Notes: generated from the sequence alone by a model not told the origin. DNA of 64,000 nucleotides from Bacteroidales bacterium (GCA_041658425.1 JBBAAF010000002.1:57156-121155); one strand, 5' to 3'; counted from the first letter of the stretch, positions 20,451 to 64,000 are shown. Numbers and translations: made by a program.

Positions 20451-20452
20451 CA

Positions 20453-20473: not shown

Positions 20474-20482
20474 AAATTTAAA

Positions 20483-25090: not shown

Positions 25091-25654
25091 GTGAAGACCT
25101 CTGCACAGCTTTATGAAAATCTCCTCCTCAAAAGGATAAAAGAAGAGGATAAATCCGCTTTTTCCATCCTATTTTCTGCCTATTACGCTGATCTTGTTAT
25201 GTTCTCCACCACGTTTACTCATAATAAAAGTGTTGCAGAGGAAATCGTCCAGGACGTATTCGTCCGCTTTTGGGAAGGCCGACATGCTCTTAAAATTACA
25301 GGTTCCCTGAAATCATACCTATTGAAATCTGTCCAGAATGGCTGTATTGATTGGTTACGGCATATGAAAATGCGGCATGCCTATGAGCAGTATTTTGTGG
25401 AAAACAGTTCAGCTTTTGACAACGACAACGAGTCCTATCAGCTTTGTTCTGAATTACAGGAACGGATGCAGACCGCTTTGGAACACCTTCCAAAAGAAGT
25501 GGCGGAATCCTTTCTTAAGAATAGGTTTGAGGGTTTAGGTTATCAGGATATTGCAAAACTGCAGGGTGTCTCTGAAAGAACGGTCGAGGTACGCATTGGT
25601 AAGGCGTTGAGACTGCTACGGGAACATCTCCGGGACTATTTCATTACCATTTAA
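25091..25654 (+). CDS. ECF-type RNA polymerase sigma-70 family factor
   Basis: 187-aa ORF with a GTG start. Region 2 (AEEIVQDVFVRFWE) and a region 4 HTH (LGYQDIAKLQGVSERTVEVRIGKALRLL) are present. Confidence 0.85.
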   Translation: MKTSAQLYENLLLKRIKEEDKSAFSILFSAYYADLVMFSTTFTHNKSVAEEIVQDVFVRFWEGRHALKITGSLKSYLLKSVQNGCIDWLRHMKMRHAYEQYFVENSSAFDNDNESYQLCSELQERMQTALEHLPKEVAESFLKNRFEGLGYQDIAKLQGVSERTVEVRIGKALRLLREHLRDYFITI

Positions 25655-25718
25655 AAAAAGATGATTTTTCAATGTGGTTTTTTTAGTAAGAAACGTCTTT
25701 GATATTGAAAGGAATTAT

Positions 25719-26765
25719 ATGACTGAACTGGAACAAGAAATCATTGACCGTTTAATTGGCGCCTTTTTAGCCGGGAAAATGTCAGCGGAGGAACGAACTG
25801 CACTGGAGACCTGGATCCTCGAATCCGCAGAAAACAAGAATTATTTTCAGCAGGTGAAAAATATCTGGGAAGTTGCCTGCAGTGCTACTGAATTATCTCA
25901 GATTGATACCGGAAAGGCTCTGAAAAAAACCATGCACCGCATTTCCGGAGGCTGGAGACCGGTACGAATTGTGTCCGTTTTGCAAAAAGTTGCCGCAGTT
26001 CTCCTGCTGCCCTTACTGGCAGGCGGATACTTTTTGGGAGGATACCAAATGCTGAAGAAACAAAGGAAACAAGTGATCTATCATGAGGTCACGGCTTCTT
26101 CCGGAACCAGGTCCAGTTTAAATCTGGCTGACGGAACTATCGTGTGGTTAAACTCCGGAAGCCACATCAAGTATCCGGACAGGTTCACCGGCAATAACCG
26201 GTTGGTCTATCTTGAAGGGGAGGCTTTTTTTTCCGTCAAGGCAGATAAAACACATCCTTTTTACGTAGAAACAAATAAGCTCACCCTTAAAGCTACCGGA
26301 ACCCAGTTTAACCTTATGGCCTACCCGGGCAGTTCAGATCTTCAGGTGACTTTAGTGGAAGGCGCCGTAGATGTGTTTCATTCCGGAAAGGATAAGAAGC
26401 AAGCCTTAATCGGGACTTTACATCCTAACGAGCATCTTCGGTTCGATACCCTGAGTTCAGGTGTTAGCATAAATTCCGGTGATGTGTACAAATATTTCGC
26501 GTGGAAAGATGGGAAACTGATATTCCGCAATGAATCGCTGGCTGAGGTTGTCAAGGTCTTAAACAGGCTCTTTCATGCCGATATTACCATCATGGATAAA
26601 GACATTGAGGATTACCGGTACAGGGCAACATTCCGGGAGGAATCATTAAGTGATATCCTTTACCTCCTCAAAATGTCCTCCCCTATTAAATATCGCGAGA
26701 TAGCCAGCAAGGCTATGCCGGACGGATCATTTTCAAAAAGAAATATTCTAATTTATAAGAAATAA
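25719..26765 (+). CDS. FecR-family anti-sigma factor / transmembrane sensor
   Basis: I place the start at the Met 15 codons into the ORF (MTELEQEII). One central TM helix (VAAVLLLPLLAGGYFLGGY). Periplasmic FecR domain (LADGTIVWLNSGSHIKY, EGEAFFSV). Confidence 0.85.
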   Translation: MTELEQEIIDRLIGAFLAGKMSAEERTALETWILESAENKNYFQQVKNIWEVACSATELSQIDTGKALKKTMHRISGGWRPVRIVSVLQKVAAVLLLPLLAGGYFLGGYQMLKKQRKQVIYHEVTASSGTRSSLNLADGTIVWLNSGSHIKYPDRFTGNNRLVYLEGEAFFSVKADKTHPFYVETNKLTLKATGTQFNLMAYPGSSDLQVTLVEGAVDVFHSGKDKKQALIGTLHPNEHLRFDTLSSGVSINSGDVYKYFAWKDGKLIFRNESLAEVVKVLNRLFHADITIMDKDIEDYRYRATFREESLSDILYLLKMSSPIKYREIASKAMPDGSFSKRNILIYKK

Positions 26766-26938
26766 CAACAGATTACTAACCTTTTAAACCGAACAATATT
26801 ATGGATACAGGATGAACGCTTCAGCAGCGTTGACAAAAAAAAGGAAGAGTGCTGAAACACTCTCCCTTTAGAGATAGGTCAACTCAACATTTGGACGATT
26901 AAGCCGATGAATTATTAACCTAAATACTTTGCAAAACT

Positions 26939-35897: not shown

Positions 35898-38057
35898 ATG
35901 AAAAACAACAGGTGTCTTCTGTTTCCCAAGACAATGATTGGTGCAATTATTCTTGTTCTTGCCGTGCAGTGCCAAACTCCTGTACAATCCCCGAAAATCA
36001 CCCAGGCTGTTTCTCCTCAGCAGAAGAACCGGGACGCCCGGTCTTTTTTCCCGAAAGCCGATCTGATGAAAATCGGGGCATTTTACTATCCGGAGCAATG
36101 GCCCCGGGAGCAGTGGGCCCGCGATTTCAATAATATGGCGGGATATGGATTTGAATTCACACACCTCGCCGAATTTGCATGGACTTTTCTGGAGCCGGAA
36201 GAAGGGGTTTACGAGTTTAAGTGGCTGGACGAGGCTATCGACCTGGCGTTTAAAGCAGGTCTCAAGATCATATTGTGTACTCCTTCGCTCGCCCCTCCGG
36301 CTTGGATGGGGGAAAAATATCCGGAAATTTACCTGGTCGGATCAAATGGCCGGCGCAAGGAACACGGGATACGCGCAAATGCTTCATTATCCAATCCCCG
36401 GTATCAGGAATTCGTTGATAAAATCGTCTCGGCCTTAGCAGAGGGCTATGGCAAAGATCCCCGGATATGGGGCTGGCAACTTGATAATGAACCGCTTGCA
36501 ACACCCGACTACAGCCCTTCCGCACGGGCAGCATTCCAACGATGGCTTAAAGAGCGTTATAGCACGATCGATAAACTGAATGCCGTTTGGGTTGGAAGTT
36601 TCTGGAGTACCCGCTACGACAATTTTGAACAGGTTTTGATACCCAACGAAGCCATGAATGAGGAAGACAAACTCAGCCCTCACTCTTTGCTCGATTTCCA
36701 GCGATTCACGGCAGATATTACCGCCGGGTTTCTGAACCATCAGGCAGATATTCTCAGGAACCATATACTTCCGGAACAATGGGTCACCACAAATTTTATC
36801 AACGTCAGCACTTCTTCTGATCCTCGACTGTCGGATCATCTGGATTTTCCAACGTTTACGATGTATCCGGTAAGCGGGAAAAATGAATTGGGCGGTAATA
36901 ATTTCCGGACCGGTATCCCCTTCCGGATTTACGAAGCCTGCGATTATTATCGGCCGATCGCCGGAATAACTGGATTGATGGAACTTCAACCCGGCCAGGT
37001 CAACTGGGGTTCGGTAAATCCCCAGCTCCTTCCGGGTACGGTCCACATGTGGATCATGGAGGCATTCGGCGGAGGTTGTTCGTTCCTGTGCACTTACCGC
37101 TACCGGCATCCGATCCGGGGCAGCGAAATGTACCATGAGGGTATTGTAGGAACCGACGGAGTGACGCTTTCGCAAGGAGGCCGTGAATTTGTTCAGGCCA
37201 TCCAGGAAATAAAACAACTTCGCACCGGGTATGATCCGGCAGCACCCATCCCGGAGATCCTGGCCAAACGCAGAACCGCTCTGCTCTGGAGCCATGAGGT
37301 GATGTGGGATCTGGATATTCAAAAACAGTCCGTCATGTGGAACACCTGGAGACACCGGAATAATTATACGCTGGCAGTCAAATCTGCAGGGGCACCGATG
37401 GATTTCATCTCTGAAAAAGATGATTTTGATGCCTATCCATTTCTGATCGCACCTGCTTATCAACTGGTTGACAGCGTATTGGTCCGGAAATGGAAAACCT
37501 ACGCAGAAAATGGGGGACATCTGATCTTAACCTGCCGGACCGGACAAAAAGATAAGAACGGTCACTTTTTCGAGGCAGGCTGGGCTGCTCCTATCAGGCC
37601 TCTAATTGGCGCCGATCTTGATTTTTTTGATATGCTGGTGCCGGATATGTATGGTACGGTAAAGTCAAACAACATTAATTATCAGTGGAACACATGGGGT
37701 GAAGTACTGACTCCTCACAACGGCACTGAAGTTCTGGCAACCTACGCTGACCAGTATTATGCGGGAAAAGCAGCGGCAGTTACCCGCCGCCTGGGCAAGG
37801 GATCAGTCACTTTTATCGGTGTTGCCTCCAAAGACGGTTTGCTGGAACGTCAGCTTGTACGGGATGTATATGAAAGGGCGGGCGTCATGATTGAAGATCT
37901 TCCAAAAGGTGTTTTCATGGAATGGCGGGATGGATTTTTTGTTGCTGTAAACTATACCGATCAGGATTTCCGGATTCCAGTTCCGGCTAACGGGCATATC
38001 CTCGTGGGAAGCAATCCGCTAAAAACTGCACAGGCAATCGTGTGGACATTGAAATAA
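35898..38057 (+). CDS. Glycoside hydrolase family 42 beta-galactosidase-like, secreted
   Basis: I place the start at the ATG at 35898, because the ORF-track start at 35865 would overlap the upstream gene. Signal peptide present. GH42 N-domain pattern (FYYPEQWPREQW, HLAEFAWTFLEPEEGVYEFKWLDEAIDL, WQLDNEP). Confidence 0.85.
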   Translation: MKNNRCLLFPKTMIGAIILVLAVQCQTPVQSPKITQAVSPQQKNRDARSFFPKADLMKIGAFYYPEQWPREQWARDFNNMAGYGFEFTHLAEFAWTFLEPEEGVYEFKWLDEAIDLAFKAGLKIILCTPSLAPPAWMGEKYPEIYLVGSNGRRKEHGIRANASLSNPRYQEFVDKIVSALAEGYGKDPRIWGWQLDNEPLATPDYSPSARAAFQRWLKERYSTIDKLNAVWVGSFWSTRYDNFEQVLIPNEAMNEEDKLSPHSLLDFQRFTADITAGFLNHQADILRNHILPEQWVTTNFINVSTSSDPRLSDHLDFPTFTMYPVSGKNELGGNNFRTGIPFRIYEACDYYRPIAGITGLMELQPGQVNWGSVNPQLLPGTVHMWIMEAFGGGCSFLCTYRYRHPIRGSEMYHEGIVGTDGVTLSQGGREFVQAIQEIKQLRTGYDPAAPIPEILAKRRTALLWSHEVMWDLDIQKQSVMWNTWRHRNNYTLAVKSAGAPMDFISEKDDFDAYPFLIAPAYQLVDSVLVRKWKTYAENGGHLILTCRTGQKDKNGHFFEAGWAAPIRPLIGADLDFFDMLVPDMYGTVKSNNINYQWNTWGEVLTPHNGTEVLATYADQYYAGKAAAVTRRLGKGSVTFIGVASKDGLLERQLVRDVYERAGVMIEDLPKGVFMEWRDGFFVAVNYTDQDFRIPVPANGHILVGSNPLKTAQAIVWTLK

Positions 38058-38205
38058 CATTGCAGTAGAGGATCTCTGACCGGAGTTGCTGACAGTACTT
38101 CTACCCTTCCGGGCGGTGAAAATATGAAATGTCTTTGTCAGGTTAATCCTGGTTGCGCAATCACTGCACTTTCATGGGTCTGACAGGAAAAATGCTTCAA
38201 ACACT

Positions 38206-40596: not shown

Positions 40597-40686
40597 TGGG
40601 GAATTGGAAACTTGAATAGGGAAAAAAATTAAAGGACTTAAGTCCTTCAAAACGATTTTAAATCAACCATAATGAAAAAAAGATAA

Positions 40687-41769: not shown

Positions 41770-41824
41770 ACTTGAATTTATAATATTATTCTATTGAAAC
41801 ATTAATCATTTAAACCTCATCATT

Positions 41825-44140: not shown

Positions 44141-44296
44141 TTGTGGAAATGTTATTTGGCAGGTATGATCAGGACATGAAATCGGTTGTGATTACCGCCA
44201 TTGCTGAAAGTTCAAAAGAAACTCAGATAATCCTCAGTAAATAATAGCAGAACTGCTATCAAAAAAATAGATTATATCATTAATTGTCAGAATATT

Positions 44297-46600: not shown

Positions 46601-46635
46601 GTAAATCTGACTAAACCATTCAGAGATTTGATAAG

Positions 46636-50348: not shown

Positions 50349-50353
50349 GGCAC

Positions 50354-52714: not shown

Positions 52715-52738
52715 ACTGTAAAACATAAGAATAGCCAA

Positions 52739-53191
52739 ATGAGAAACTGGAATTATCTGAAGCGCCCGGTTGGTGCAGGTTTACTGGCAACATCATTGAT
52801 GTCAGTACTTTCATCCTGCAGTTCAGCCGTTCAAAAATTGGATGGGAAAAGCTTTGTTCCGATGCTTCTTCAAAAAGGCACAACGGATAAAGGCAGGAAT
52901 CTCTACTGGCATTTTCCCAACAACTGGGGGCCGACCGGTCCGGGAATCGCAACTACCAGCACCATACGAAGCAGCGACTGGAAGCTTATTTACTGGTATG
53001 AAAACCAGCATTTTCAATTGTTTAACATCCTTGAAGACATTGGTGAACTTCACAACCTGGCTGGTGAAAATCAGAAGAAAGTGAAAGAACTGGCAAAGGA
53101 ATTGGGGCAATATCTCCGCAGTGTGGATGCACAGCGTCCAATATTCAAGAGCACCGGAAAACCGGTTCCCTGGCCTGATGAATTGATTTAG
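52739..53191 (+). pseudogene. Sulfatase remnant: a lipoprotein-type signal joined directly to a sulfatase C-terminal subdomain
   Basis: 150-aa ORF. Residues 30-150 match the C-terminal part of S1 sulfatases (DGKSFVPMLLQ, LYWHFP, RSSDWKLIYW, LFNILEDIGELHNLA). The whole catalytic N-domain, including the FGly motif, is absent. Confidence 0.7.
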
Positions 53192-53213
53192 AATGTCTTA
53201 AAACAAACTTATC

Positions 53214-55742
53214 ATGAGATTCTTTAGGAAAGAACTTCTGCTGGGCCTTGCTGCTGTTCCGTTTACCATTCCGCAAAGTTGCCGGATGGAGCCGATCAGG
53301 CCTAACATTATTTATATACTGGCAGATGACCTTGGGTACGGCGATTTATGTTGTTACGGCGCAACAAAGGTTACAACCCCGAATTGTGATCGTTTAGCAA
53401 AAGAGGGAATGCGTTTTACCGATGCTCATAGTAGTTCGGCAGTGTCGACCCCTACACGATATGGAATACTCACCGGGCAGTATTGCTGGCGCAGTTGGTT
53501 GAAAAATTGGGTATTATGGGAAAATATGCCGCTTTTAATAGATACTTCCAGGCTAACGGTTGCAAGCATGCTGAAACAGGTGGGTTACACTACCGGCTGC
53601 ATTGGGAAATGGCACCTGGGCTGGGGAAATAATCCAGATCACGAATGGACCGGTGAGGTGAAACCCGGCCCGCGGGAAGTTGGTTTCGATTATTATTTCG
53701 GTGTCCCCCATAGCCATAATTCACCTGCCTATTTGCAGGTATTCATGGAAAACAGCCACATAGTCGGATTAAATCCGGGAGAAGACCTTCATGATGAGGC
53801 AATCATAAAAAGGGTTCAAAGAAATCCGGATGAGACTGCGATAAACCTCTCCGATCGGGCAGTACGATTTATTGAGGATAATAAGGATAAACCCTTCTTT
53901 CTTTATTATCCGGTAGTGAATATCCATTCCCCACTTACACCGAATCCCCGTTTTCAGGGTAAAAGCGATGCCGGGCTTTATGGCGATTTTATAGCTGAAT
54001 TCGATTGGGCGGTGGGTGAAATACTTGAAACCCTGGATCGGCTGGGACTTTCGGAAAAGACGATAATCATTTTAACCAGCGATAATGGCGCTTCTTCTGA
54101 AGCAGCCGCTTTCGGCCTCAAATCCAATGCTCCCTGGCGGGGAGAAAAATGCCAGATCTATGAAGGGGGACACCGGGTACCATTCATCGTGCGATGGCCC
54201 GGCAAGATCAAACCCGGTACCATCAGTGACGAAACAACTTGTCTGACCGATTTCATGGCCACCAGTGCTGCAATTGTGGGATATACTCTTCCCGGAAATG
54301 CCGCGGAGGACAGCTATAATATGTTGCCAGTGCTGCTGGGTAAAAAAATCGACAAACCGGTCAGGGAGTCGACCATACATCATTCTCTTTCAGGCATGTT
54401 CGCGATCCGTCAAGGGAAGTGGAAACTCATAGAAGGTCTGGGGGATGGCGGTCCGGAAATCGGACCGGCAACTGATGCCAGTGCTGAAGGCAAACCGGAG
54501 ATGGATGCTTCTAACGGTAAATTCAAAGATCTGATTTACTATTTTCCTCCCCCGCCCCAACCGGCACCAGGAGATCCTGAGGGGCAATTGTATGACCTGG
54601 AAAATGATCCCGGAGAAACTAAAAACCTTTGGAATGAACAACCTGAAATTGTTTTAAAACTTCAGCAATTATTGGAGAAAACTAAACGGACTGAATCAGA
54701 TTTCGACAAACCGGTTAAGAAAAGCAGAACAGTTGTAACAATTAAAAAGGACCGGTTTTATATCAATGATCAGATCACATACCCCGGACGTTTTTGGAAG
54801 GAGAACAAAATTGAAGGCCTTTTAATGAACTCCAGGATGGTTCAGGGAATCTTTGATGACCTTAATCCTCAAACAATTAATAAATGGATCTATCCCGACA
54901 CCAGAAAATGGGATCCGGACCGGAATTCAAATGAGTTTGTACTCAATATGAAAAAATGGTACGATTACGGGCTCCTCTCTTTCACAATTAACCTGCAGGG
55001 AGGCAGTCCTCAGGGATATTCACAGGAACAGCCGTGGTTAAATTCTGCGTATACCTATGATGGTAAGCTGCGTCCGGAATATATGGAACGGCTGGAACGT
55101 ATTCTGAACAAGGCCGATGAAATAGGAATGGTCCCCATACTCGGCCTGTTCTATTTCGGACAGGACCAACGGCTGCAGGATGAAACTGCAATAATGAATG
55201 CCATTGACCATGTTCTGGAATGGCTGTTTGACAGGAATTACCGTAATATTCTGATAGAGATCAATAATGAGTGCAATGTTAAATACGACCATGACATCCT
55301 TAAGCCAGACAGGGTGCATGAACTGATTGAATATGTTAAGCGGAAGAATAGAAACGGCTTCTGTTATTATGCAGGGACCAGCTATGGCGGCAGGTTCATC
55401 CCGCTTACGAATGTAGTTAAGGCTTCCGATTTCATTCTGCTGCACGGTAATGGAGAAAAGAATCCCGATAACATACTTGCCATGGTGCAGAAGACAAGGG
55501 TCGTGCCTGGATATACACCAAAACCGATTTTATTCAATGAAGATGACCATTTCGATTTTAATAAGGATTGGAATAACTTTACTGCTGCCGTAACCGGGTA
55601 TGCATCATGGGGATACTTTGATTACCGAATGAAAGACGAGCCCTATGAAGCTGGCTATCAAAGCATACCGGTTGATTGGGGAATAAACTCCGAAAGAAAG
55701 AAGTCCTTTTTTAATTTGCTGAAACAAATCACGGGATATTAA
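53214..55742 (+). CDS. Ser-type S1 sulfatase fused to a TIM-barrel-like (clan GH-A-like) C-terminal domain of about 340 aa
   Basis: 842-aa ORF. Sulfatase domain (IIYILADDLGYGD, SSSAVSTPTRYGILTG, GKWHLG, LTSDNG) runs to about residue 495. The C-terminal domain contains an IEINNEC block (Glu686 at nt 55269-55271). Confidence 0.8.
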   Translation: MRFFRKELLLGLAAVPFTIPQSCRMEPIRPNIIYILADDLGYGDLCCYGATKVTTPNCDRLAKEGMRFTDAHSSSAVSTPTRYGILTGQYCWRSWLKNWVLWENMPLLIDTSRLTVASMLKQVGYTTGCIGKWHLGWGNNPDHEWTGEVKPGPREVGFDYYFGVPHSHNSPAYLQVFMENSHIVGLNPGEDLHDEAIIKRVQRNPDETAINLSDRAVRFIEDNKDKPFFLYYPVVNIHSPLTPNPRFQGKSDAGLYGDFIAEFDWAVGEILETLDRLGLSEKTIIILTSDNGASSEAAAFGLKSNAPWRGEKCQIYEGGHRVPFIVRWPGKIKPGTISDETTCLTDFMATSAAIVGYTLPGNAAEDSYNMLPVLLGKKIDKPVRESTIHHSLSGMFAIRQGKWKLIEGLGDGGPEIGPATDASAEGKPEMDASNGKFKDLIYYFPPPPQPAPGDPEGQLYDLENDPGETKNLWNEQPEIVLKLQQLLEKTKRTESDFDKPVKKSRTVVTIKKDRFYINDQITYPGRFWKENKIEGLLMNSRMVQGIFDDLNPQTINKWIYPDTRKWDPDRNSNEFVLNMKKWYDYGLLSFTINLQGGSPQGYSQEQPWLNSAYTYDGKLRPEYMERLERILNKADEIGMVPILGLFYFGQDQRLQDETAIMNAIDHVLEWLFDRNYRNILIEINNECNVKYDHDILKPDRVHELIEYVKRKNRNGFCYYAGTSYGGRFIPLTNVVKASDFILLHGNGEKNPDNILAMVQKTRVVPGYTPKPILFNEDDHFDFNKDWNNFTAAVTGYASWGYFDYRMKDEPYEAGYQSIPVDWGINSERKKSFFNLLKQITGY

Positions 55743-55750
55743 GAAAAACC

Positions 55751-57124
55751 ATGAAACAACCACTTCAATCTCTAAGAAACAACCTGATATTATCATCTTT
55801 CGCGATAAGTGTATCTGCCATGATAATGTTCGGTTCATGTCATCAAACCCAACCGGAATCCAAAGGAAAAGCCCTCACCACTGAGCATTTGCAGGCCGCC
55901 GGTGATGGTGCAGCTGATTCGATTCGTCGTGAATGGTTTCGTCAGGCACATTTTGGAATGTTTATTCACATGGGAGCTTACTCAGTGGCTGCCAGGGGAG
56001 AATGGGTAATGAACAGGGAACTTATTCCCTTTGAAGAGTACAAGGAAAAATATGCGGAAAAATTTACGGCAGAGAATTTTGATCCTGAAAAATGGGTTGA
56101 AATTGCCATAAATGCCGGCATGAAATACATTGTCTTTGGAGCACGGCATCATGACGGTTTTTGCCTGTGGGATACCAGGACAAAAGAATTCAATTCCATG
56201 AATTACGGACCAAAAAAGGACCTTGTACGGCTTTTTGTGGATGCTGTCAGAAAATCAGGGTTAAAGGTGGGGCTATATTATTCTGCGGCCGATTGGACTC
56301 ATCCGGATTATCCTCCTTTTGAAAGGGACTGGCCCACAACCTGGCGCAGTGAAGAGGCACGTATACGATTTGTAGAATTTTATAAAAGCCAGGTAAGGGA
56401 GTTAATGACAAATTATGGTAAGATAGATATTCTGTGGTGGGATGGCACTGCTCCTGAAGATGGACTCGAAGGGGAGGCAATCAATAAGGAAGTATATAAA
56501 CTTCAACCCGGAATATTAATAAATAACCGGAATGGTGAACCCTTTGATTTTGGAACCCCTGAGAATGTAATTAAAGAAGGAGCCAGGGGAAGACCATGGG
56601 AAACTTGCCTGACCATGAACGACAACTGGGGTTATCATGCTACAGACCACAATTTTAAAAGTTCCAAAGAGGTAATAAAATCACTGATCAGATGTGTTTC
56701 GCTCGGAGGTAACCTCTTGTTGAATGTTGGTCCGAAGCCTGATGGGACATTCCCTGAGGAATCTATAAAGATTCTAGCGGAAGTCGGTGATTGGCTTAAA
56801 AAAAATCACGAATTCATCGATGGGCAGACCGGCAGGTCTGATTTTACTGATCTTTGGAACAATAGTCTGATTCCTACGGTAAAGGGGAATAAATTTTATC
56901 TGCACTTTAATAATCCGCCTGCTGACGGGGAATTTTGCTATGCGGAAATTAGGAACGAAGTCCTTTCAGTTAAATTTCTGGAAACAGGTAAGTGTATTGA
57001 ATTTAAAAAAACCGGACCCAGGTTATTTCTATTAAACCTCCCCAAATTTGATGAAAACAAGATCACAACGGTTGTTATTGAAGTAAAGGGAAAACTTGAA
57101 GTAGCACAGATCAGGACTGATTGA
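55751..57124 (+). CDS. Glycoside hydrolase family 29 alpha-L-fucosidase lipoprotein
   Basis: 457-aa ORF with a lipobox (FGSC). GH29 motifs are present (WFRQAHFGMFIHMGAYSV, GARHHDGFCLWDT, ILWWD). Confidence 0.9.
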   Translation: MKQPLQSLRNNLILSSFAISVSAMIMFGSCHQTQPESKGKALTTEHLQAAGDGAADSIRREWFRQAHFGMFIHMGAYSVAARGEWVMNRELIPFEEYKEKYAEKFTAENFDPEKWVEIAINAGMKYIVFGARHHDGFCLWDTRTKEFNSMNYGPKKDLVRLFVDAVRKSGLKVGLYYSAADWTHPDYPPFERDWPTTWRSEEARIRFVEFYKSQVRELMTNYGKIDILWWDGTAPEDGLEGEAINKEVYKLQPGILINNRNGEPFDFGTPENVIKEGARGRPWETCLTMNDNWGYHATDHNFKSSKEVIKSLIRCVSLGGNLLLNVGPKPDGTFPEESIKILAEVGDWLKKNHEFIDGQTGRSDFTDLWNNSLIPTVKGNKFYLHFNNPPADGEFCYAEIRNEVLSVKFLETGKCIEFKKTGPRLFLLNLPKFDENKITTVVIEVKGKLEVAQIRTD

Positions 57125-57219
57125 TATATATGTTACTGAATCCATGGGATATAAGTGAAAACACTATGATCATACATGATTTTCATGAATTTCAGATTAA
57201 CTAATTTAAAAACTTTAAT

Positions 57220-59139
57220 ATGAAAACTATTAAATGGCTGATAATTAGTGTCTTATTTTGTTTACCAAGCATTCTTTGCGGGCAGGAAAATAATGAAAGG
57301 AACATCTTCAGTGATGTAAATGATAACCAACTGGCTAATGGAGAAAAATTTATATTCTGGGAAACTAAACAAAAGTATTCCAGAACATATTATGTGGATA
57401 TAAAAAATCTTCGTGCATCGGATACGAATGATGGGTCTGAAAAAAAACCTTTTAAAACCATCTCAAAAGCTGCGGAAATACTTAACCCCGGAGAAAGGGT
57501 AATTATCAGGGAAGGAACATATAGGGAAGCAATTCATCCGTTACAGGGGGGCAAGAGTTCTGAGGAAATGATCACTTATGAAGCAGAAAAAAATGCAAAA
57601 GTTATTGTAAGTGGATCAATAATTTTAAAATCGGAGGAATGGACAGAAGGCAAGGGATGGGATTATGCCAGGGATATTGATGTGAATGAGAAAAATAAGA
57701 CTGCGGGAATTAAGATCTGGCAATTTGACTTTCACCCTGAGGACTTCATGGGATATAATCCATTTGGAATGGTTAATTTATTACATGAACGTGAAGCTAT
57801 GGATTTCAAAGAAGTAATTCCCGATCCTTATTTTAAACGGCGTGGAATGGTTTTTCTTGATGGAAAACCACTGGAGCAAGTACTATCACCAACTGCATTG
57901 TTATTGAAAAAGGAAGGTGCATTCTGGGTAGAACATAATGGCATGAGAATCCATGTTAGGTTTCCGGGAGATAAGGGCCCAGGTGATTTTTTAATTGAAG
58001 CGACTGCAAAAGAACAGGTCTTCGTACCCAAACATTATGGATTTGGATATATTAAGATTAATGGGATTACTTTCCGGCACTGTGGAAATGGGTTCCCTGT
58101 ACCACAGCGAGGAATGGTTTCTTCCAATCGTGGTCACCACTGGATTATTGAGAACTGTACAATTGAGTGGGCAAATTCCCTGGGAATGGATATAGGAAAT
58201 GAAATGTGGTATACAACTCCTCAGCCCCTGATCGGTTTTCACATTGTTAGAAACAACATAATCAGACAATGCGGTATTGGAGGGTTGGAAGGATACAGAG
58301 GTATTAGTTTATTGATTGAAGATAACTTGTTTGAAAATATCGGATGGCAGGATGCGGAATTTGCCTGGGAATCAGGAGCAATTAAGCTTCACAGGGCAGA
58401 GAATTGCCTGATCAGGAGAAACGTTTTCAGGTACATTATCCATGCGCCTGGATTATGGTTGGATTATCTTTCGAATAAAAATTGCCGCATCACGAAGAAT
58501 GTTTTTTCAGATATCACCACTGCGTTAGGCGCGTTATATGTAGAAGCAAGCGTACATGATTGTGTTATAGATCATAATATAATTCACAGAGTGAAGGGTC
58601 CCTCCTGGATAGCAGTGGGTTACGACCCGGGAGGGAATGGCTGTATAGGAAGTGGAACGGATAGTGTCAGGTTTGAAAACAACCTGATAATTGATATAGA
58701 AAATACCGGGTATGCCTCTTTTCTTGATGAATGGCAGACTAACCGGATGGTACTCAACAGAGGAGGAATTGCACGGTTTCACAAGGTGACTGATAATATC
58801 TTTATTAACTGCGGGAAACATGCTATCGAATTCCCCAATGAATTTAATTATGCAGATGGGAATGTTTACAGTAAGATGCCTCCAGGCTACATTAAAATAA
58901 AACATCCTGAGCCTAATCTCAAGCTTGACATGGAAACCAGTCAGCTGCTATTTGGATGGGAAAAGAAAGGCAGCATACAAGTAATTGATGCAACACTTGA
59001 TACAGAATTACTGGAGCTTTCATTACTGGTTGCTCCGGACACCGCAAATAAAATTATCAAAGCTGGCCCATTCAGGATAAATGGCACAATGAAGAATATC
59101 AACATTGATCCAAGAAAAGGAAATAAGTCCGACCTATGA
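57220..59139 (+). CDS. Secreted right-handed parallel beta-helix protein (DUF1565/pectate-lyase-fold-like)
   Basis: 639-aa ORF with a signal peptide. N-terminal DUF1565-like motif (ASDTNDGSEKKPFKTISKAAEILNPGERVIIREGTYRE), followed by reiterated N/I/G-rich coils (IENCTIEW, IVRNNIIRQCG, IEDNLFENIG, IRRNVF, ITKNVF, IDHNIIH, FENNLIIDI, VTDNIFINCG). Confidence 0.7.
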   Translation: MKTIKWLIISVLFCLPSILCGQENNERNIFSDVNDNQLANGEKFIFWETKQKYSRTYYVDIKNLRASDTNDGSEKKPFKTISKAAEILNPGERVIIREGTYREAIHPLQGGKSSEEMITYEAEKNAKVIVSGSIILKSEEWTEGKGWDYARDIDVNEKNKTAGIKIWQFDFHPEDFMGYNPFGMVNLLHEREAMDFKEVIPDPYFKRRGMVFLDGKPLEQVLSPTALLLKKEGAFWVEHNGMRIHVRFPGDKGPGDFLIEATAKEQVFVPKHYGFGYIKINGITFRHCGNGFPVPQRGMVSSNRGHHWIIENCTIEWANSLGMDIGNEMWYTTPQPLIGFHIVRNNIIRQCGIGGLEGYRGISLLIEDNLFENIGWQDAEFAWESGAIKLHRAENCLIRRNVFRYIIHAPGLWLDYLSNKNCRITKNVFSDITTALGALYVEASVHDCVIDHNIIHRVKGPSWIAVGYDPGGNGCIGSGTDSVRFENNLIIDIENTGYASFLDEWQTNRMVLNRGGIARFHKVTDNIFINCGKHAIEFPNEFNYADGNVYSKMPPGYIKIKHPEPNLKLDMETSQLLFGWEKKGSIQVIDATLDTELLELSLLVAPDTANKIIKAGPFRINGTMKNINIDPRKGNKSDL

Positions 59140-60617
59140 TACCACAACCATTTGCCCCTGCTGCTCTAAGTATTTCTGCAACAATTATTGTATTAGCCTG
59201 TGCAGGTTCTGAAAAACTTTCCGGACAAGTTCAGCCGAAGCCTAATGTATTATTTATTGTTATGGATGATCTTCGTACAGAATTGGGCTGCTATGGATCT
59301 GTGATGGTGAAATCACCCAACATCGATCGGTTAGCAAATCAAGGTGTAATGTTTAACAGGGCCTACTGTCAGCAGGCTATCTGTATGGCCTCAAGGGCTA
59401 GTTTGTTCACCGGATTAATGCCGACAAAAAACCACATATATACTTCTCTATCAGTTGATAGCCTTATGCCAAAAGTACTTACCCTGAACAAATACTTCAG
59501 CCAAAATGATTACAATGTAGCAGGGATAGGGAAACTATATCATTACAAAGAAGATCATATTAAACAGTTTGGCGAAACCTGGCTTGAAGATGAACCTGGT
59601 TCAAGGGAAACGGGCAGGGGCTATCTGACTCCTGAAGCCATTAGCCAGATTGAAAACGAGAAAGGCCCGGCATGGGAAATTGCAGACGTCATGGATAATG
59701 AATACCGGGATGGTTTTTATGCTGAATGGGCCGTACAGAAACTTGGGGAACTGAAACAAACTAACCAGCCATTCTTTTTGGGTATAGGTTTCAGAAAGCC
59801 ACACCTCCCTTTTTGTGCACCCAAAAAATACTGGGACCTATATCCTCACGACAGCATTATTCTGGCTGAGAATCCCTTTTATCCGGAAAACGGTTCTGTT
59901 CATGGTTGGAATAATTCAGTTGAACTTAGAACATATACCAATATTCCTGACGGGAATGAACCGATTTCAGATGAAACCTCCAGGATGCTCATTCATGGCT
60001 ATTACGCCTGCGTTTCCTACGTTGATGCACAGGTTGGCATAGTCCTGAATGCGCTTGACAGCTTGGGATTGGCTCAAAATACCATTGTTGTGCTCTTAGG
60101 CGATAATGGATGGAAACTTGGGGAACATGGTATGTGGGGCAAGCATACTAACTTTGAACTTGATACCAATGTACCTTTGATTATTAGAGCTCCCGGTATG
60201 GCCAACGGCAAACAGTCTGCGTCATTTGTACAAGTTCTCGACATTTATCCCACACTATGCAGTTTATGTGAATTGAATATACCTGAAAATATCGATGGAA
60301 TTAACCTGATACCAGTCCTCCAGAATCCTTCCAAGGCAGTCAGAAATGAAGCCTTCAGTTTATGGCCTTCCAATGAAACCATAGATACTGATTCCATTCA
60401 TGTGATCTTAGGTTTTTCGATACGAACCAATGATTTTAGGTATATCGAATGGACACATCTGGCCTCAGGTAAAGTTGTCTCCAGGGAATTGTACGATCAT
60501 AGGAATGATCCCGGTGAAAATAAGAATGTATCGAAATTACAACAATACAGGAAAACGCTCAGGCAATTGTCCACTAGGCTTGAATTTATTTTATCCAGTC
60601 AGCCAAAAAACCAATGA
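59136..60617 (+). CDS. S1 sulfatase, iduronate-2-sulfatase-like, with a C-x-A-x-R FGly motif
   Basis: 493-aa ORF with FIVMDDLR, QQAICMASRASLFTG, GIGKLYH and LLGDNGW. Its ATG overlaps the upstream stop (ATGA). Confidence 0.9.
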   Translation: MIPQPFAPAALSISATIIVLACAGSEKLSGQVQPKPNVLFIVMDDLRTELGCYGSVMVKSPNIDRLANQGVMFNRAYCQQAICMASRASLFTGLMPTKNHIYTSLSVDSLMPKVLTLNKYFSQNDYNVAGIGKLYHYKEDHIKQFGETWLEDEPGSRETGRGYLTPEAISQIENEKGPAWEIADVMDNEYRDGFYAEWAVQKLGELKQTNQPFFLGIGFRKPHLPFCAPKKYWDLYPHDSIILAENPFYPENGSVHGWNNSVELRTYTNIPDGNEPISDETSRMLIHGYYACVSYVDAQVGIVLNALDSLGLAQNTIVVLLGDNGWKLGEHGMWGKHTNFELDTNVPLIIRAPGMANGKQSASFVQVLDIYPTLCSLCELNIPENIDGINLIPVLQNPSKAVRNEAFSLWPSNETIDTDSIHVILGFSIRTNDFRYIEWTHLASGKVVSRELYDHRNDPGENKNVSKLQQYRKTLRQLSTRLEFILSSQPKNQ

Positions 60618-60711
60618 ATATAAGGTGTTCAAAAACCGCATTGTAGGAATTCTGTTCAATTCAGGGTAAGAACCAGTAATTCAGCTTTAGAAAAAGTAAA
60701 TAACAAATAAT

Positions 60712-62280
60712 ATGAATGAAATGAAAAGAAAAATAAATTGTTTAAAAGTGCTATCAACAGCCAGTTTGATGATTACAGGCACTTTGGTTTCATGTCATAC
60801 TGAATCCAAAGATGTTATTGGGAAAATCAAAAGTAAATCCAATATTTTATTTTTATTTGCCGACGACCAGAGGGCAGATGCACTGGGAGCCACGGGTAAT
60901 ACTTATATCAATACCCCAAATATCGATAATCTTGCGAAGACAGGTGTTCGTTTCTCCAATTGTTATGTGATGGGGGGGCATCATGGGGCGATTTGCGCAC
61001 CCAGTCGGGCCATGCTGTTGAGTGGAAAAAACTTGTTCCATGTGTATGACGTGCTGGACGGTGTTAAAACAATGCCAATGCATTTTGCTCAAAATGGCTA
61101 CGAAACTTTTGGTACCGGGAAATGGCACAACGGAGGTAAAACTTTCGAAGCTTCATTCCAAAAAGGTAAAAACGTGTTTCTGGGAGGAATGTGCAATCAT
61201 TATATTGTCCCCTGCCAGGATTTAGGTCCGGATGGAAAATTATCGGAACCGGTGAATAAGGGTTACTCAACAGATCTTTTTGCCCAGGCAGCGATGGATT
61301 TTATCAACGAATATGCCAACGGTAAGAAGGAAAAACCCTTCTTCTGCTATGTAGCATTTACAGCACCTCATGACCCGCGTTCACCACGTGAAGATTACAT
61401 TGGGATGTATCCCGATGAGTCAATACCAGTACCTGGTAACTTTATGAAGCTTCATCCATTCGCATTCGATCAGCTAGATATCAGGGACGAAACCCTTGCC
61501 CCATGGCCTCGTACACCGGAAATCATCCAGGCATCGTTAGCGGATTATTATGCGTTGATCTCACACCTGGATGCTAAAGTTGGAGAAATCATCGAAACCT
61601 TAAAAAAGAATAGTTTGTATGACAAAACAATTATCATATATTCCGCCGATAACGGATTAGCAATCGGCAGTCATGGTTTGCTGGGAAAACAAAGTCTGTA
61701 TGAAGACTGTATGAAAGTACCATTGATATTCACTGGCCCGGGAATTCCAAAAGCAAAAGTTTCAGACGCACTTGTTTACCTGTATGATATTTTTCCAACC
61801 CTGAGTAACCTTAGTAAATTACCAGTCCCTGAAGGAATCGACGGGAAAGATATTACTCCGGTTATCAGGGGAACAGCGGAAGGGGTTCGAACATCTCTGT
61901 ATACCGTTTACCGAAATACTGTCCGTGCGGTCCGAACCAAAGAATGGAAACTGATTCGCTATCCTGAACGGAACTACACCCAACTTTTCAATCTTGAAAA
62001 AGATCCGTTGGAGATCAATAATCTTGCAGCGCGACCCGAATACCAAACCAAAGTATATGAAATGATGGATATTCTGAAAGATTGGTATATGGCAACCGAT
62101 GATACAGCATCCTTAACACCTAAAACTATTTTACCTTTGGAATACGACTATAAAAAATTGAAACAGGTACCCGATGAGAACCAGCCTGAATATATTTTGA
62201 AGAAGTACTTTAATAAAGTGAAAATATATGATCCTGTTGAATCGGGTGTGAATGAAAGATCTGAAAAAAGCCCCTATTAA
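60712..62280 (+). CDS. S1 sulfatase (Cys-type, CAPSR)
   Basis: 522-aa ORF with a lipoprotein-like signal (LVSC), plus LFLFADDQRAD, GAICAPSRAMLLSG, GTGKWH and YSADNG. The last 25 codons or so appear to derive from a beta-helix gene remnant. Confidence 0.9.
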   Translation: MNEMKRKINCLKVLSTASLMITGTLVSCHTESKDVIGKIKSKSNILFLFADDQRADALGATGNTYINTPNIDNLAKTGVRFSNCYVMGGHHGAICAPSRAMLLSGKNLFHVYDVLDGVKTMPMHFAQNGYETFGTGKWHNGGKTFEASFQKGKNVFLGGMCNHYIVPCQDLGPDGKLSEPVNKGYSTDLFAQAAMDFINEYANGKKEKPFFCYVAFTAPHDPRSPREDYIGMYPDESIPVPGNFMKLHPFAFDQLDIRDETLAPWPRTPEIIQASLADYYALISHLDAKVGEIIETLKKNSLYDKTIIIYSADNGLAIGSHGLLGKQSLYEDCMKVPLIFTGPGIPKAKVSDALVYLYDIFPTLSNLSKLPVPEGIDGKDITPVIRGTAEGVRTSLYTVYRNTVRAVRTKEWKLIRYPERNYTQLFNLEKDPLEINNLAARPEYQTKVYEMMDILKDWYMATDDTASLTPKTILPLEYDYKKLKQVPDENQPEYILKKYFNKVKIYDPVESGVNERSEKSPY

Positions 62281-62420
62281 AACCCTCTCAAAAGCTACTG
62301 AGATATAAAAGCCTGAAGAAAAGGTAATTATTAGGGGACGAACAAACAGAGTTGCTATTGATCCTGAACAAGAAGGCGGAATTTATGGGGAAAAGTTAAC
62401 TATAGAAATTATTGGATACC
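62206..62420 (+). pseudogene. Remnant of a beta-helix (DUF1565-like) gene, paralogous to codons 55-125 of the 57220 gene
   Basis: Nucleotide and peptide similarity to 57390-57600 (PIKTLSKATEI-stop-KPEEKVIIRGRTNRVAIDP against PFKTISKAAEILNPGERVIIREGTYREAIHP). There is a 1-nt indel and an in-frame TAA at 62306-62308. No signal peptide and no helix body follow. Confidence 0.65.
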
Positions 62421-62462
62421 AATATTTTATTCTAATTGTTTTTCTAACGAATAATTTGAAAC

Positions 62463-64000
62463 ATGAATTATTTTTGCTCATACCTTCGTCCATCAAATTG
62501 TTTTCTTGCGTTATCAGTTCTTATGACTAACTGTACTGGGATTAAAAATGATAAACCTAAAAATATAAGTACTAATACCGAAAAACCCAACATCATTTAT
62601 ATTCTTGCAGATGACCTTGGTTATGGTGATTTGAGAAGCTTAAATCCTGATTCACGTATCCCGACGCCTAATATGGATAAAATTGTGCGGGAAGGGGTTC
62701 ATTTTACCGATGCTCATTCCAGTTCTGCAGTATGCACGCCTACCCGTTATGGAATACTTACTGGCAGATATGCTTTTCGGACGAGATTAAAAAATGGTGT
62801 ACTTTGGGGTTATTCAACATCATTAATTGAGCCTGGTAGAACAACTGTTGCTTCTTTTTTGAAAGAGAAAGGATACCAAACCGCCTGCATCGGCAAATGG
62901 CATCTGGGGCTCGATTGGAGCAAAAAAGACAGCACTAAAGCAATTCCTGATGTCCAGGGAGGTGACCAGATCCCTTCAAATTTTGACGACAATGTTGATT
63001 ATATCAAACCTGTAAAAGGAGACCCATCTGACCATGGTTTTGATAATTCATTGATTATTCCGGCCTCCCTGGACATGTATCCATACTGCTATATACGCAA
63101 TGGGATTGTGGTTGAAGCGCCGACCTTTTATACAGAAGGAAAGAACCAGGATGTTGATGGCCGGGGAGTTTTTTGGCGGGCTGGTAAAATGTCACCAAGC
63201 TTCGATTTTTTTAAGGTATTACCAACCTTTGTTGATTCGGCCTGTGCCTATATATCGAGTGCTGGTAAGCACAACAAACCCTTCTTTTTATATCTGTCAT
63301 TACCGGCACCTCATACTCCATGGCTTCCAACTCTGGAATTTAAAGGACGTTCATCAGCTGGAAAATACGGTGATTATGTAGCAATGGTGGATGAAATGCT
63401 CGGAAAGGTGCTTGAAACAGTTAAAAATGCAAATATTGATGATAATACACTTGTCATTGTCACGTCCGATAACGGATCGGACTGGGGGCCATCCGACATA
63501 GAAGAAACTGGTCATCGCGCCAATTACCACTTTAAAGGACAAAAAGCCGATATATATGAAGCCGGACACCGGATACCATTTGTTGCCCGATGGAAAGGAA
63601 TTATCCCTGCCGGGCTTGCTTCCGAGGAGGTAATGTGTACAACTGATCTTATGGGAACCCTTGCCGGTATGCTGCATCAAACGGTTCCGGAAGGTGCTGG
63701 CGAGGATAGTTATAATCTTTGGCCGGCTTTTGTCGGTGAAGTTAGTTATTCGCCAATACGGGAAGCCACCATTCATCATTCCCTGGATGGGTTTTTCTCC
63801 ATCAGAAAAGGAAAATGGAAACTCACTCCCTATCTTGGTTCCGGGGGATTCACTATACCAAAAGTGATTAAACCTCAGAAAGGTGAAGCCCCCGGTACTT
63901 TATACGATATGGGAAAAGACCCTCAGGAACAAGTTAACCTTTATAGCCAATATCCGGATATAGTCCAGAAATTATCCGAACTTTTGGAACTTTATAAATC
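62463..64000 (+). CDS. S1 sulfatase (Cys-type, CTPTR), 3' end truncated by the window edge
   Basis: Open frame from the ATG at 62463 to the window end; it is absent from the ORF track because no stop is reached. My own translation gives MNYFCSYLRPSNCF..., IIYILADDLGYGD, SSSAVCTPTRYGILTG and GKWHLG. It is paralogous to the sulfatase domain at 53214. Confidence 0.85.
   Translation, partial: MNYFCSYLRPSNCFLALSVLMTNCTGIKNDKPKNISTNTEKPNIIYILADDLGYGDLRSLNPDSRIPTPNMDKIVREGVHFTDAHSSSAVCTPTRYGILTGRYAFRTRLKNGVLWGYSTSLIEPGRTTVASFLKEKGYQTACIGKWHLGLDWSKKDSTKAIPDVQGGDQIPSNFDDNVDYIKPVKGDPSDHGFDNSLIIPASLDMYPYCYIRNGIVVEAPTFYTEGKNQDVDGRGVFWRAGKMSPSFDFFKVLPTFVDSACAYISSAGKHNKPFFLYLSLPAPHTPWLPTLEFKGRSSAGKYGDYVAMVDEMLGKVLETVKNANIDDNTLVIVTSDNGSDWGPSDIEETGHRANYHFKGQKADIYEAGHRIPFVARWKGIIPAGLASEEVMCTTDLMGTLAGMLHQTVPEGAGEDSYNLWPAFVGEVSYSPIREATIHHSLDGFFSIRKGKWKLTPYLGSGGFTIPKVIKPQKGEAPGTLYDMGKDPQEQVNLYSQYPDIVQKLSELLELYK

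Follow-up and report, generated by a model that had tools for sequence, protein, structure and literature searches.

Gene content of the locus

We analyzed a stretch of 64,000 nucleotides of DNA from a Bacteroidales bacterium (GCA_041658425.1, JBBAAF010000002.1:57156-121155; this whole stretch is called the window) and in particular the array of plus-strand genes that extends from position 25091 to the window end at 64000. The array is a polysaccharide utilization locus (PUL): susC and susD lie side by side and are linked to genes for carbohydrate-active enzymes (CAZymes) on the same strand. Most of the locus is ordinary for a PUL. What stands apart is a gene for a short-chain dehydrogenase/reductase (SDR) together with the two genes for a two-subunit glycine decarboxylase (GcvPA and GcvPB), which recur beside the same glycosidases in distant relatives.

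An earlier note on this DNA had described 23 co-directional open reading frames (ORFs) with short spacers or 4-nt overlaps, and this description was borne out. The ORF listing gives 22 complete frames from 25091 to 62280, and translation of frame 3 adds the 23rd, a sulfatase gene starting at 62463 which is still open at position 64000. The intergenic distances range from -4 to 195 nt and are mostly below 100 nt, with 4-nt overlaps at 47964-47967 and 59136-59139; spacers of 148-195 nt precede the SDR gene, the gene for the glycoside hydrolase family 31 (GH31) enzyme, the second of two GH42-like paralogs and the last sulfatase gene. For the GH42 gene we adopted the ATG at 35898 of the public gene call, so that this gene begins 7 nt past gcvPB. 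Nearly all the family calls of the note are supported by Pfam and NCBIfam, while its count of 22 intact genes was too generous, as one of the 22 complete frames carries a 123-nt in-frame deletion (see below). Matching DNA is present in the public metagenome contig ERZ27247322. The features are:

23728..24993, plus strand: anaerobic sulfatase-maturating enzyme, radical SAM/SPASM type (Pfam Radical_SAM and SPASM)
25091..25654, plus strand: extracytoplasmic function (ECF) sigma factor, Bacteroidetes subfamily (Sigma70_r2 and r4_2; TIGR02985, 149.7 bits vs 126.4)
25674..26765, plus strand: FecR-type anti-sigma factor (FecR and FecR_C)
26939..30349, plus strand: SusC-like TonB-dependent transporter with N-terminal STN domain (STN, CarbopepD_reg_2, Plug, beta-barrel; TIGR04056, 862 bits; SusC signature)
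30369..31889, plus strand: SusD-like lipoprotein (SusD-like_3 and SusD_RagB; N-terminal lipobox)
31899..31932, plus strand: terminator- or attenuator-like hairpin directly 3' of susD, a 15-bp stem followed by a T-run (fold -24.7 kcal/mol)
32085..32879, plus strand: classical SDR oxidoreductase, cytoplasmic (adh_short_C2, 1.7e-63)
32907..34301, plus strand: glycine decarboxylase P-protein subunit 1, GcvPA (GDC-P; NF001696, 465 bits vs 364; 1WYT_A, E 4e-56)
34319..35890, plus strand: glycine decarboxylase P-protein subunit 2, GcvPB (NF003346, 549 bits vs 441; 1WYT_B, E 9e-87)
35898..38057, plus strand: GH42 enzyme with signal peptide (Glyco_hydro_42, 3e-109, and 42M)
38206..40596, plus strand: divergent GH31 enzyme with signal peptide (Pfam GH31 domains; PDB 6JR8, 7KMP, 2XVG, 5JOU)
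40687..41769, plus strand: protein of the ADP-ribosylglycohydrolase (ARH) fold, exported by twin-arginine translocation (Tat), deletion allele (PF03747; RRSFLK twin-arginine motif)
41825..44140, plus strand: GH42-like three-domain glycosidase, paralog 1, with signal peptide (weak partial GH42 match, structure model, Foldseek)
44297..46600, plus strand: GH42-like glycosidase, paralog 2 (82% amino-acid identity to paralog 1)
46636..47967, plus strand: APC-family amino-acid permease, inner membrane (AA_permease_2, 1.9e-42; no NCBIfam equivalog)
47964..50348, plus strand: GH3 lipoprotein, beta-glucosidase/beta-xylosidase type (GH3 N- and C-terminal and Fn3-like domains)
50354..52714, plus strand: fusion of a GH43-like beta-propeller, a GH29 alpha-L-fucosidase and an F5/8-type C domain (Pfam)
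52739..53191, plus strand: sulfatase remnant of 150 aa (SGSH_C only; no formylglycine (FGly) motif)
53214..55742, plus strand: Ser-type S1 sulfatase of 842 aa (STPTR; Sulfatase, 8.6e-54)
55751..57124, plus strand: GH29 alpha-L-fucosidase lipoprotein (Alpha_L_fucos, 7e-92)
57220..59139, plus strand: beta-helix glycosidase, GH120-like (Pfam Beta_helix; PDB 3VST, E 4.6e-26)
59136..60617, plus strand: S1 sulfatase (CMASR; nearest solved relative 6HHM, E 6.6e-98)
60712..62280, plus strand: S1 sulfatase (CAPSR; Pfam and motif)
62463..64000, plus strand: S1 sulfatase, S1_15-like, open at the window end (CTPTR; 7OZE and 6S20, E about 1e-70)

The beginning of the array contains a full trans-envelope signalling set, consisting of the ECF sigma factor, the FecR-type anti-sigma factor and a SusC whose STN domain scores 32 bits against the cut-off of 28.4 (PF07660); the sigma/anti-sigma-gated SusC/SusD PUL of the earlier note is thus confirmed. 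The maturase gene ends 97 nt upstream of the sigma gene on the same strand. Its product has both domains expected of an anaerobic sulfatase-maturating enzyme and scores above the equivalog cut-offs (NF010308, 561 bits vs 484; TIGR03942, 512 vs 349). Since one sulfatase of the array is of the Ser type (STPTR) and the rest are of the Cys type, the maturase belongs functionally to the locus and should be counted as part of it.

When we inspected the array for promoter-like and terminator-like consensus sites their numbers equaled those in shuffled sequence, and only the hairpin after susD stood out. Hairpins are found at the same position in two of the related loci described below (L020 and L022). 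The proposal that the array forms one continuous transcription unit is made less certain by this hairpin.

The SDR-GcvPA-GcvPB genes and related loci

Ahead of the SDR gene lie the strong hairpin and a 150-nt spacer. For the SDR, searches of NCBIfam and PDB return generic classical-SDR matches only and no specific equivalog. The two following proteins both score above the curated equivalog cut-offs for a two-subunit P-protein, and GcvPB retains the pyridoxal phosphate (PLP)-binding lysine in the motif NLHKTF, as seen in the alignment with 1WYT_B. GcvPB is 70-75% identical to proteins annotated as GcvPB from Rhodothermaceae, Gemmatimonadota and other phyla, and in other phyla the same gcvPA/gcvPB genes adjoin genes for peptidases (DPP-IV, S28, M24, M3 and S8), including proline-specific ones. 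Judged by this conservation and by the peptidase neighbors, GcvPA and GcvPB resemble an ordinary catabolic P-protein, and these neighborhoods fit with the catabolism of peptide-derived glycine. From its distribution the SDR-GcvPA-GcvPB group is an old operon which also exists outside PULs. A glycine riboswitch or any other Rfam element was not found in the whole window at gathering thresholds, and a search of positions 31850-32150 against Rfam at E <= 10 returned nothing beyond noise at the hairpin. In the literature on gcv genes in PULs or in fucoidan degradation we found no description of a link between these genes and glycans.

The SDR genes of the related loci, which we denote by L numbers, are orthologous (53-80% identical) and lie adjacent to or one gene off gcvPA/gcvPB in seven contexts and within 8 kb in two more. 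Orthologues stand beside gcvPA/gcvPB in L020, L021, L022, L027, L112 and L113 and nearby in L024 and L034; L025 has a weaker SDR homologue (46% identical) about 6 kb away. Six contexts from several phyla (L020 11682-12806, L022 11239-12375, and also L024, L025, L110 and L112) have a further gene after gcvPB, which encodes an NAD-kinase-like protein of about 370 aa (PF01513/PF20143, weak DAGK_cat); the window does not have it.

Comparison of gene orders shows how far the association extends. In the syntenic relatives the identities to the window proteins are 64-67% for SusC, 70% for SusD, 72-80% for the SDR, 71-80% for GcvPA, 80-87% for GcvPB, 64-65% for GH31, 61-66% for the ARH-fold protein, 71-74% for the GH42-like proteins, 75% for GH3 and 66-68% for GH29. 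The contig CAYQQR010000007.1 of an uncultured Bacteroidaceae has the order FecR-SusC-SusD-SDR-sulfatase-GcvPA-GcvPB-NAD-kinase-like-sulfatase-GH2-GH140-like, followed by GH31-FAD oxidoreductase-ARH-GH42-like-GH3-...-GH29, at 65-80% identity to the window. The contig SDBV01001453.1 reads sigma-FecR-SusC-SusD-SDR-GcvPA-GcvPB-NAD-kinase-like-GH95-like-sulfatase-GH2-GH140-like and continues with sulfatases-GH31-...-GH29-GH42-like. A shorter arrangement, GH29-ARH-GH42-like-sulfatase, is present in Bacteroides sp. SM23_62, and GH29-(ARH)-GH42-like with sulfatases in L003 and L031.

Other loci hold the same genes in rearranged form. L027 has SDR-GH2-GcvPA-GcvPB-TonB receptor divergent from GH31 and GH42-like genes, with shared proteins only 52-58% identical, and L034 has GcvPB-GH31-GH95-like-x-SDR-GH42-like-GH42, x being an intervening gene. 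L021 and L113 contain SDR-GcvPA-GcvPB-GH42 without susCD. A sulfatase gene is interposed between the SDR gene and gcvPA in L020, and the GH2 gene of L027 lies inside the same operon. In three loci, one of them without susCD, the GH42 gene abuts gcvPB at a distance of 3-30 nt. Thus, as far as gene order can tell, SDR, GcvPA, GcvPB, GH31, GH42-like and GH42 or GH2 co-occur in no fewer than three gene orders, and the rearranged orders in L027, L034, L021, L113 and L020 suggest that the association of the gcv genes with glycosidases exceeds inherited synteny. By the same comparison the locus is a member of a conserved PUL type of uncultured sediment and estuarine Bacteroidales.

Two of these loci have neighbors of their own. 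Directly preceding SDR-GcvPA-GcvPB-GH42-GH95 in L021 (3614-7725) is a corrinoid methyltransferase set, comprising a B12-binding protein, a URO-D/MtaA-like protein, an S-methyltransferase domain and CobW, which hints at a tie of methylated-sugar or one-carbon metabolism to the Gcv module. In L027 (13409-22307) the GH31/GH42-like/SDR/Gcv cluster adjoins a phage-type integrase, a primase-like gene and a type I restriction-modification system, and could thus lie at the margin of a mobile island.

Glycosidases, permease and sulfatases

Signal peptides, many of the lipoprotein type, are found in the GH42, GH31, GH3, GH43-like/GH29, GH29 and GH120-like enzymes, in both GH42-like paralogs and in the four S1 sulfatases. 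The protein at 35898-38057 is a full-length GH42 enzyme by Pfam, unlike the two 770-aa paralogs treated below; its orthologues (67-74% identical) lie directly 3' of gcvPB in L021 and L113 and occur also in L034. The GH31 enzyme is nearest to alpha-xylosidases and a dextranase-type enzyme, chiefly through its C-terminal domains. A sulfoquinovosidase was considered and rejected, as matches to the YihQ type are weak (E 1e-10, C-terminal domain only) and far below those of the alpha-xylosidase type. GH31 orthologues adjoin the GH42-like gene in L002, L027, L031, L035 and L042 and are found in the same locus, not adjacent, in L034 and L041. L002 also has an orthologue of GH3 (75% identical), and orthologues of the GH29 enzyme at 55751 (66-68% identical) occur in L002, L003, L031 and L033. 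The beta-helix protein matches the GH120 xylosidase XylC (3VST) over residues 66-329 of 639. This was its sole match among PDB sequences and the Pfam lyase matches stayed below threshold, so that we rejected an assignment as polysaccharide lyase.

The two 770-aa paralogs had been listed in the earlier note as unknown non-CAZyme genes, a view that has to be given up: by model fold and an invariant pair of glutamates they appear to be exported GH42-like glycosidases. They do not match GH42 over their full length; only residues 217-316 touch PF02449 (26.7 and 25.7 bits) and there is no 42M match. The AlphaFold model of paralog 1 (pLDDT 86.6) retrieves with Foldseek a GH35 glucosyltransferase, GH42 and GH164 (E 4e-29 to 1e-16, TM about 0.6, about 13% identity). 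In this predicted structure there is a TIM barrel with conserved glutamates after strands 4 and 7, as is characteristic of clan GH-A; these are E197, after strand 185-192, and E385, at the end of strand 381-386, both invariant in 31 sequences. Given model and alignment, the paralogs are probably retaining glycosidases of an uncharacterized family with a candidate catalytic glutamate pair; no characterized member was found and no named family matched. We had considered the family as very rare because a word-indexed search returned 42 clusters, a view we abandoned when an exhaustive search gave 718 representative clusters at E <= 1e-30. By these counts the close subfamily alone is small and the wider family large.

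All four S1 sulfatases bear the FGly motif C/S-x-P/A-x-R, one of the Ser type and the others of the Cys type, and the remnant consists of a signal peptide and lipobox joined straight to the sulfatase C-terminal subdomain. For the C-terminal 340 aa of the sulfatase at 53214-55742 no match was found in Pfam or among PDB sequences, and the TIM domain which the earlier note placed there could not be confirmed by these comparisons. The gene at 59136 overlaps the GH120-like gene by 4 nt, and its nearest solved relative, 6HHM, is P18_S1_7, an ulvan endo-xylose-2-sulfatase (PMC9096561). The nearest solved relatives of the sulfatase at 62463 are S1_15 Gal/GalNAc-6-sulfatases.

An exported ARH-fold protein with a deletion

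The protein encoded at 40687-41769 matches PF03747 with 91.6 bits against a cut-off of 26.2. Its model (pLDDT 87.6) is similar to DraG, ARH3 and MJ1187 with a Foldseek probability of 1.0, and residues D58, E65, T109-D110-D111, D302, D304 and S305 are invariant in 30 sequences of the family, among them the acidic residues of the binuclear metal site. Fold and metal site thus place the protein in the PF03747 family. The twin-arginine motif is present in 21 of 30 aligned members.

Compared with all 29 aligned relatives, the window gene has a clean 123-nt (41 codons) in-frame deletion at about position 41203. The deletion takes out the near-invariant segment QGGGGGWWQP...LC.IWK, the most conserved motif of the family, and in the relatives the lost segment is flanked by a direct ATATCC repeat. 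Going by this conservation the allele in the window is probably inactive.

ARH relatives occur in Bacteroidota, Planctomycetota, Opitutaceae and Chloroflexota. In other metagenome-assembled genomes of Bacteroidota the gene has as neighbors GHL10-like, GH95, GH42, GH106-like and FAD- or GFO-type oxidoreductase genes. Because the protein is exported and has glycosidase neighbors, ADP-ribose is unlikely to be its substrate, and the subfamily would act on a different, extracytoplasmic one. Taken together with their neighborhoods, the ARH-fold and GH42-like proteins represent, on comparative grounds, exported families whose homologues sit in glycan-degrading clusters of several phyla. Some Planctomycetota members (P0081, P0112) are fused to a sialate O-acetylesterase domain (PF03629), a further tie to glycan processing. 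In relatives (L002 8554-9975 and 16045-19160, L007 11148-12569, start of L033) the ARH gene is accompanied by genes for a PF12831 FAD-dependent oxidoreductase, for a GHL10-like protein and for an Sde182 nucleoside-hydrolase-like protein, which are missing from the window.

The earlier note had counted seven genes as unexpected in a PUL. This holds for SDR, GcvPA and GcvPB; three of the others, namely both paralogs and the ARH-fold protein, are exported and glycosidase-like, and the APC permease is absent from the related loci compared. What remains as true non-CAZyme content of the PUL is SDR, GcvPA and GcvPB. For these three the proposed link to the PUL is strengthened by the conserved and shuffled neighborhoods.

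Genes surrounding the locus

Five more plus-strand genes lie immediately upstream of the array (20423-24993). Among them is a LacI-family regulator split into two overlapping ORFs, one for the HTH part (20423-20836) and one for the ligand-binding part (20823-21368), which suggests a frameshift or an assembly error. Together with the ARH deletion and the sulfatase remnant the split regulator indicates some decay in the region. Between the regulator and the maturase (21365-23496), on the same strand as the PUL, are genes for an NAD-dependent sugar epimerase/reductase (weakly GDP-fucose-synthase-like) and a cytidylyl/adenylyltransferase-like protein. GC and AT skew reverse sign near 20 kb, where gene orientation switches as well.

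On the minus strand (78-20139) there is a second, divergent PUL with SusC (16939-20139), SusD-like_2 (15425-16891), GH10 (6675-7784), two LamG-domain proteins, GH2 (2112-4466) and GH127 (78-2039); it looks to be aimed at xylan or an arabinose-containing plant glycan. Between the PUL regions (9469-12254) a YeeE/YedE-type sulfur-transport fragment (9469-9978), two small ORFs and a double-rhodanese protein (11214-12254) are encoded, and beyond these an RHS-repeat protein (12268-13359) and a MORN-repeat protein (14581-15249).

Substrate and role of the glycine decarboxylase genes

Our favored reading, which we hold with about even confidence, is that the locus is a PUL under ECF sigma/anti-sigma control which degrades, by exo-acting enzymes, a sulfated heteroglycan or glycoconjugate of fucose, galactose and xylose, and which has a linked cytoplasmic glycine-catabolic module. 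The functional tie of SDR, GcvPA and GcvPB to the PUL is by itself slightly favored by the comparative evidence. The sigma factor, the anti-sigma factor and the STN-bearing SusC would act as a trans-envelope switch, SusC and SusD would take in oligosaccharides, and the glycan would be dismantled mostly by exo-acting steps; among the locus enzymes no endo-acting one was identified. The substrate would contain, going by the families and their nearest solved relatives, alpha-L-fucose, 6-sulfated beta-galactose, 2-sulfated xylose and possibly alpha-xylose or alpha-glucose. The SDR and gcv genes would be transcribed by read-through of the susD hairpin or from a promoter of their own. Growth on the substrate would deliver glycine or a glycine-yielding compound, possibly from a glycine-rich glycopeptide or a proteoglycan remnant, and the P-protein would pass the glycine to the glycine cleavage system.

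The sulfated fucose-bearing glycan of the earlier note is supported by the two GH29 domains, the four sulfatases with FGly motif and the adjacent maturase; its term "fucan-like" is too narrow, since xylose and galactose sulfate are indicated no less strongly than fucose (S1_7-like, S1_15-like and GH120-like enzymes). Exo-alpha-L-fucosidases and S1 sulfatases do occur here together, as is expected of a locus for fucoidan or sulfated fucan. No endo-fucanase (GH107, GH168, GH174, GH187) and no S1_17 or S1_25 sulfatase was recognized with the models used, which included no dedicated endo-fucanase or SulfAtlas models.

Several observations weigh against the favored reading. The substrate call is drawn solely from family-level and nearest-relative specificities, and the strong hairpin may part susCD from the remaining genes. 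Neither gcvT nor gcvH occurs in the window or in any of the other 11 GcvPB contexts that we examined, so that the full glycine cleavage system is assumed and not seen. In the window there is no peptidase, amidase or other glycine-releasing enzyme, and the APC permease is without homologue in any related locus compared. The SDR-GcvPA-GcvPB(-NAD-kinase-like) genes are also found where glycan genes are few or missing (L025, L026, L112), and most contexts come from CAZyme-rich organisms, in which coincidental neighbors are to be expected more often. The link between the gcv genes and glycans may therefore be historical instead of functional.

If this is so, SDR-GcvPA-GcvPB could be the ordinary P-protein operon of the lineage, with its own promoter and no role in glycan use, around which PUL genes have gathered by chance or for reasons of expression. 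We regard this explanation as a serious alternative, though less probable than a functional tie. It is in agreement with the high identity of GcvPB across phyla and the equivalog-level scores of both subunits, with the same operon, often with the NAD-kinase-like gene, being found in peptidase-rich or unrelated contexts, and with the hairpin and spacer ahead of the SDR gene; moreover the closest relatives, with 80-87% identity, might share the synteny through recent common descent alone. However, the pairing with the same orthologous glycosidases persists through rearrangement in the distant L027 and L034, secreted enzymes are interposed within the operon (the sulfatase in L020, GH2 in L027), and an exported GH42 begins immediately past GcvPB even in a locus without susCD.

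It is also possible, with a similar degree of probability, that the array is a mosaic of at least three transcription units which share a strand and possibly serve more than one glycan: the susCD switch, the SDR-Gcv-GH42-GH31-ARH-GH42-like-GH3 block and the GH29/sulfatase/GH120 block. The hairpin after susD and the four longer spacers would suit this view, relatives hold the blocks in differing combinations (L003 and L031 as compared with SDR-Gcv-GH42 alone in L113), and the ARH deletion, the sulfatase remnant and a tandem duplication speak for local decay or remodelling. Yet there is no second convincing terminator, the remaining terminator-like and promoter-like sites being at the level of shuffled sequence; most spacers are short and two genes overlap their predecessors, and the full order is largely kept in CAYQQR010000007.1. 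Hairpins after susD are, besides, common in PULs whose downstream genes remain co-induced.

More far-reaching, and in our view unlikely, is a reading in which SDR-GcvPA-GcvPB-GH31-GH42-like-GH42/GH2, together with the ARH-fold protein, constitute a dedicated pathway for a class of substrate not described so far, a sulfated glycan linked to or carrying glycine or a glycine-rich peptide. The Tat-exported ARH-fold protein would then belong to a new family of metal-dependent enzymes which cleave, in the periplasm, a furanoside bond or a bond between sugar and amino acid. This idea is based on the analogy to ARH1 and ARH3, whose targets are ribose-arginine and ribose-serine bonds. The glycine set free would be removed by the P-protein.

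An amino-acid-like substituent on the glycan, as the earlier note had suggested, is one possible reading and not the sole one, since the operon also occurs without glycan genes and the P-protein subunits, about 70% identical across phyla, look ordinary. The version in which the SDR and an altered P-protein-like decarboxylase process a glycine-type substituent or aglycone, possibly taken up by the APC permease, is the least supported of the readings of the gcv genes and improbable: the lack of gcvT/gcvH with SDR and GcvPA/GcvPB in 12 contexts in which the SDR and often the NAD-kinase-like partner are kept, the NCBIfam scores only modestly above the cut-offs, and the permease inside the PUL, with its weak match to FrlA (some APC transporters carry sugar-amino-acid conjugates), would suit it, but the close conservation with ordinary GcvPB and the retained PLP site do not point to a new specificity, the window locus alone among those compared has the permease, no substituent-detaching enzyme was identified, and no paper was found that ties these genes to glycans.

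Comparison with known systems

PULs for host O-glycans in Bacteroides thetaiotaomicron, said to have been described by Martens et al. in 2008, are reportedly regulated by ECF sigma and anti-sigma factors. The locus resembles them in its ECF sigma factor, FecR-type anti-sigma factor, STN-extended SusC and SusD as well as in its fucosidases, beta-galactosidase-type enzymes, S1 sulfatases and dependence on a sulfatase maturase. Unlike them, it has no GH20, GH33, GH84 or GH89 for hexosamines and sialic acid; it has GH31, GH120-like, GH3 and xylose-2-sulfatase-like enzymes, which points to a plant- or algal-type glycan, and in addition the SDR-GcvPA-GcvPB, ARH-fold and GH42-like proteins.

Among the matches of the GH31 enzyme is PDB 5JOU, BoGH31A of the Bacteroides ovatus xyloglucan utilization locus. 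With that locus the window shares GH31, a beta-galactosidase, GH3, a GH43-like domain and fucosidases, a set for fucose-galactose-xylose side chains on a glucose backbone. It differs in the absence of an endo-glucanase (GH5, GH9, GH74), the presence of sulfatases, the type of regulator and the strongly divergent GH31 catalytic domain.

As in the ulvan PUL of Formosa agariphila, the source of P18_S1_7 (PMC9096561), S1 sulfatases are interleaved with exo-glycosidases, and the sulfatase at 59136 is nearest to the ulvan enzyme; however, we found neither an ulvan lyase nor a GH78, GH88 or GH105 enzyme in the window locus. GH29 enzymes are shared with fucoidan loci. What distinguishes the locus from marine algal PULs is its sigma/anti-sigma regulation, its host, an uncultured sediment Bacteroidales, and the absence of a recognizable endo-fucanase, for which there is no reliable Pfam model.

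Some ribose utilization systems (Rus) of Bacteroidetes carry ADP-ribosylglycohydrolases (bioRxiv 10.1101/574913), and this preprint is the sole report we found in the literature of ARH genes within SusC/SusD loci. The window locus likewise has an ARH-family gene inside a SusC/SusD locus; unlike Rus it has no ribokinase, nucleoside hydrolase or RusR genes, and its ARH subfamily is Tat-exported and associated with GH29, GH31, GH95 and GHL10-like genes.

GcvPA and GcvPB correspond to the Thermus thermophilus P-protein (1WYT) and to the Bacillus subtilis gcvT-gcvPA-gcvPB genes in their two subunits, equivalog-level matches and PLP-lysine motif. They depart from the canonical two-subunit enzyme in having neither adjacent gcvT/gcvH nor a glycine riboswitch, in lying amid exported glycosidases, and in their conserved partner, the SDR, elsewhere also the NAD-kinase-like gene. 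The paralogs, finally, share with GH42, GH35 and GH164 of clan GH-A the predicted three-domain fold and the two invariant glutamates at the acid/base and nucleophile positions, whereas they are only about 13% identical to these and their match to the Pfam GH42 model is confined to a stretch of 100 residues.

Implications

PULs for sulfated algal and detrital glycans are a main carbon-recycling route of sediment and marine Bacteroidota, and most of their enzymes are still unassigned. The locus adds to these a large uncharacterized GH42-like family with an intact candidate catalytic pair and a Tat-exported branch of the ARH family for which ADP-ribose is an unlikely substrate. If the link to the gcv genes were mere synteny, the locus would be an ordinary, somewhat decayed PUL. 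The repeated and rearranged pairing of the P-protein and SDR genes with particular glycosidases suggests that glycan breakdown may be tied to glycine or one-carbon metabolism.

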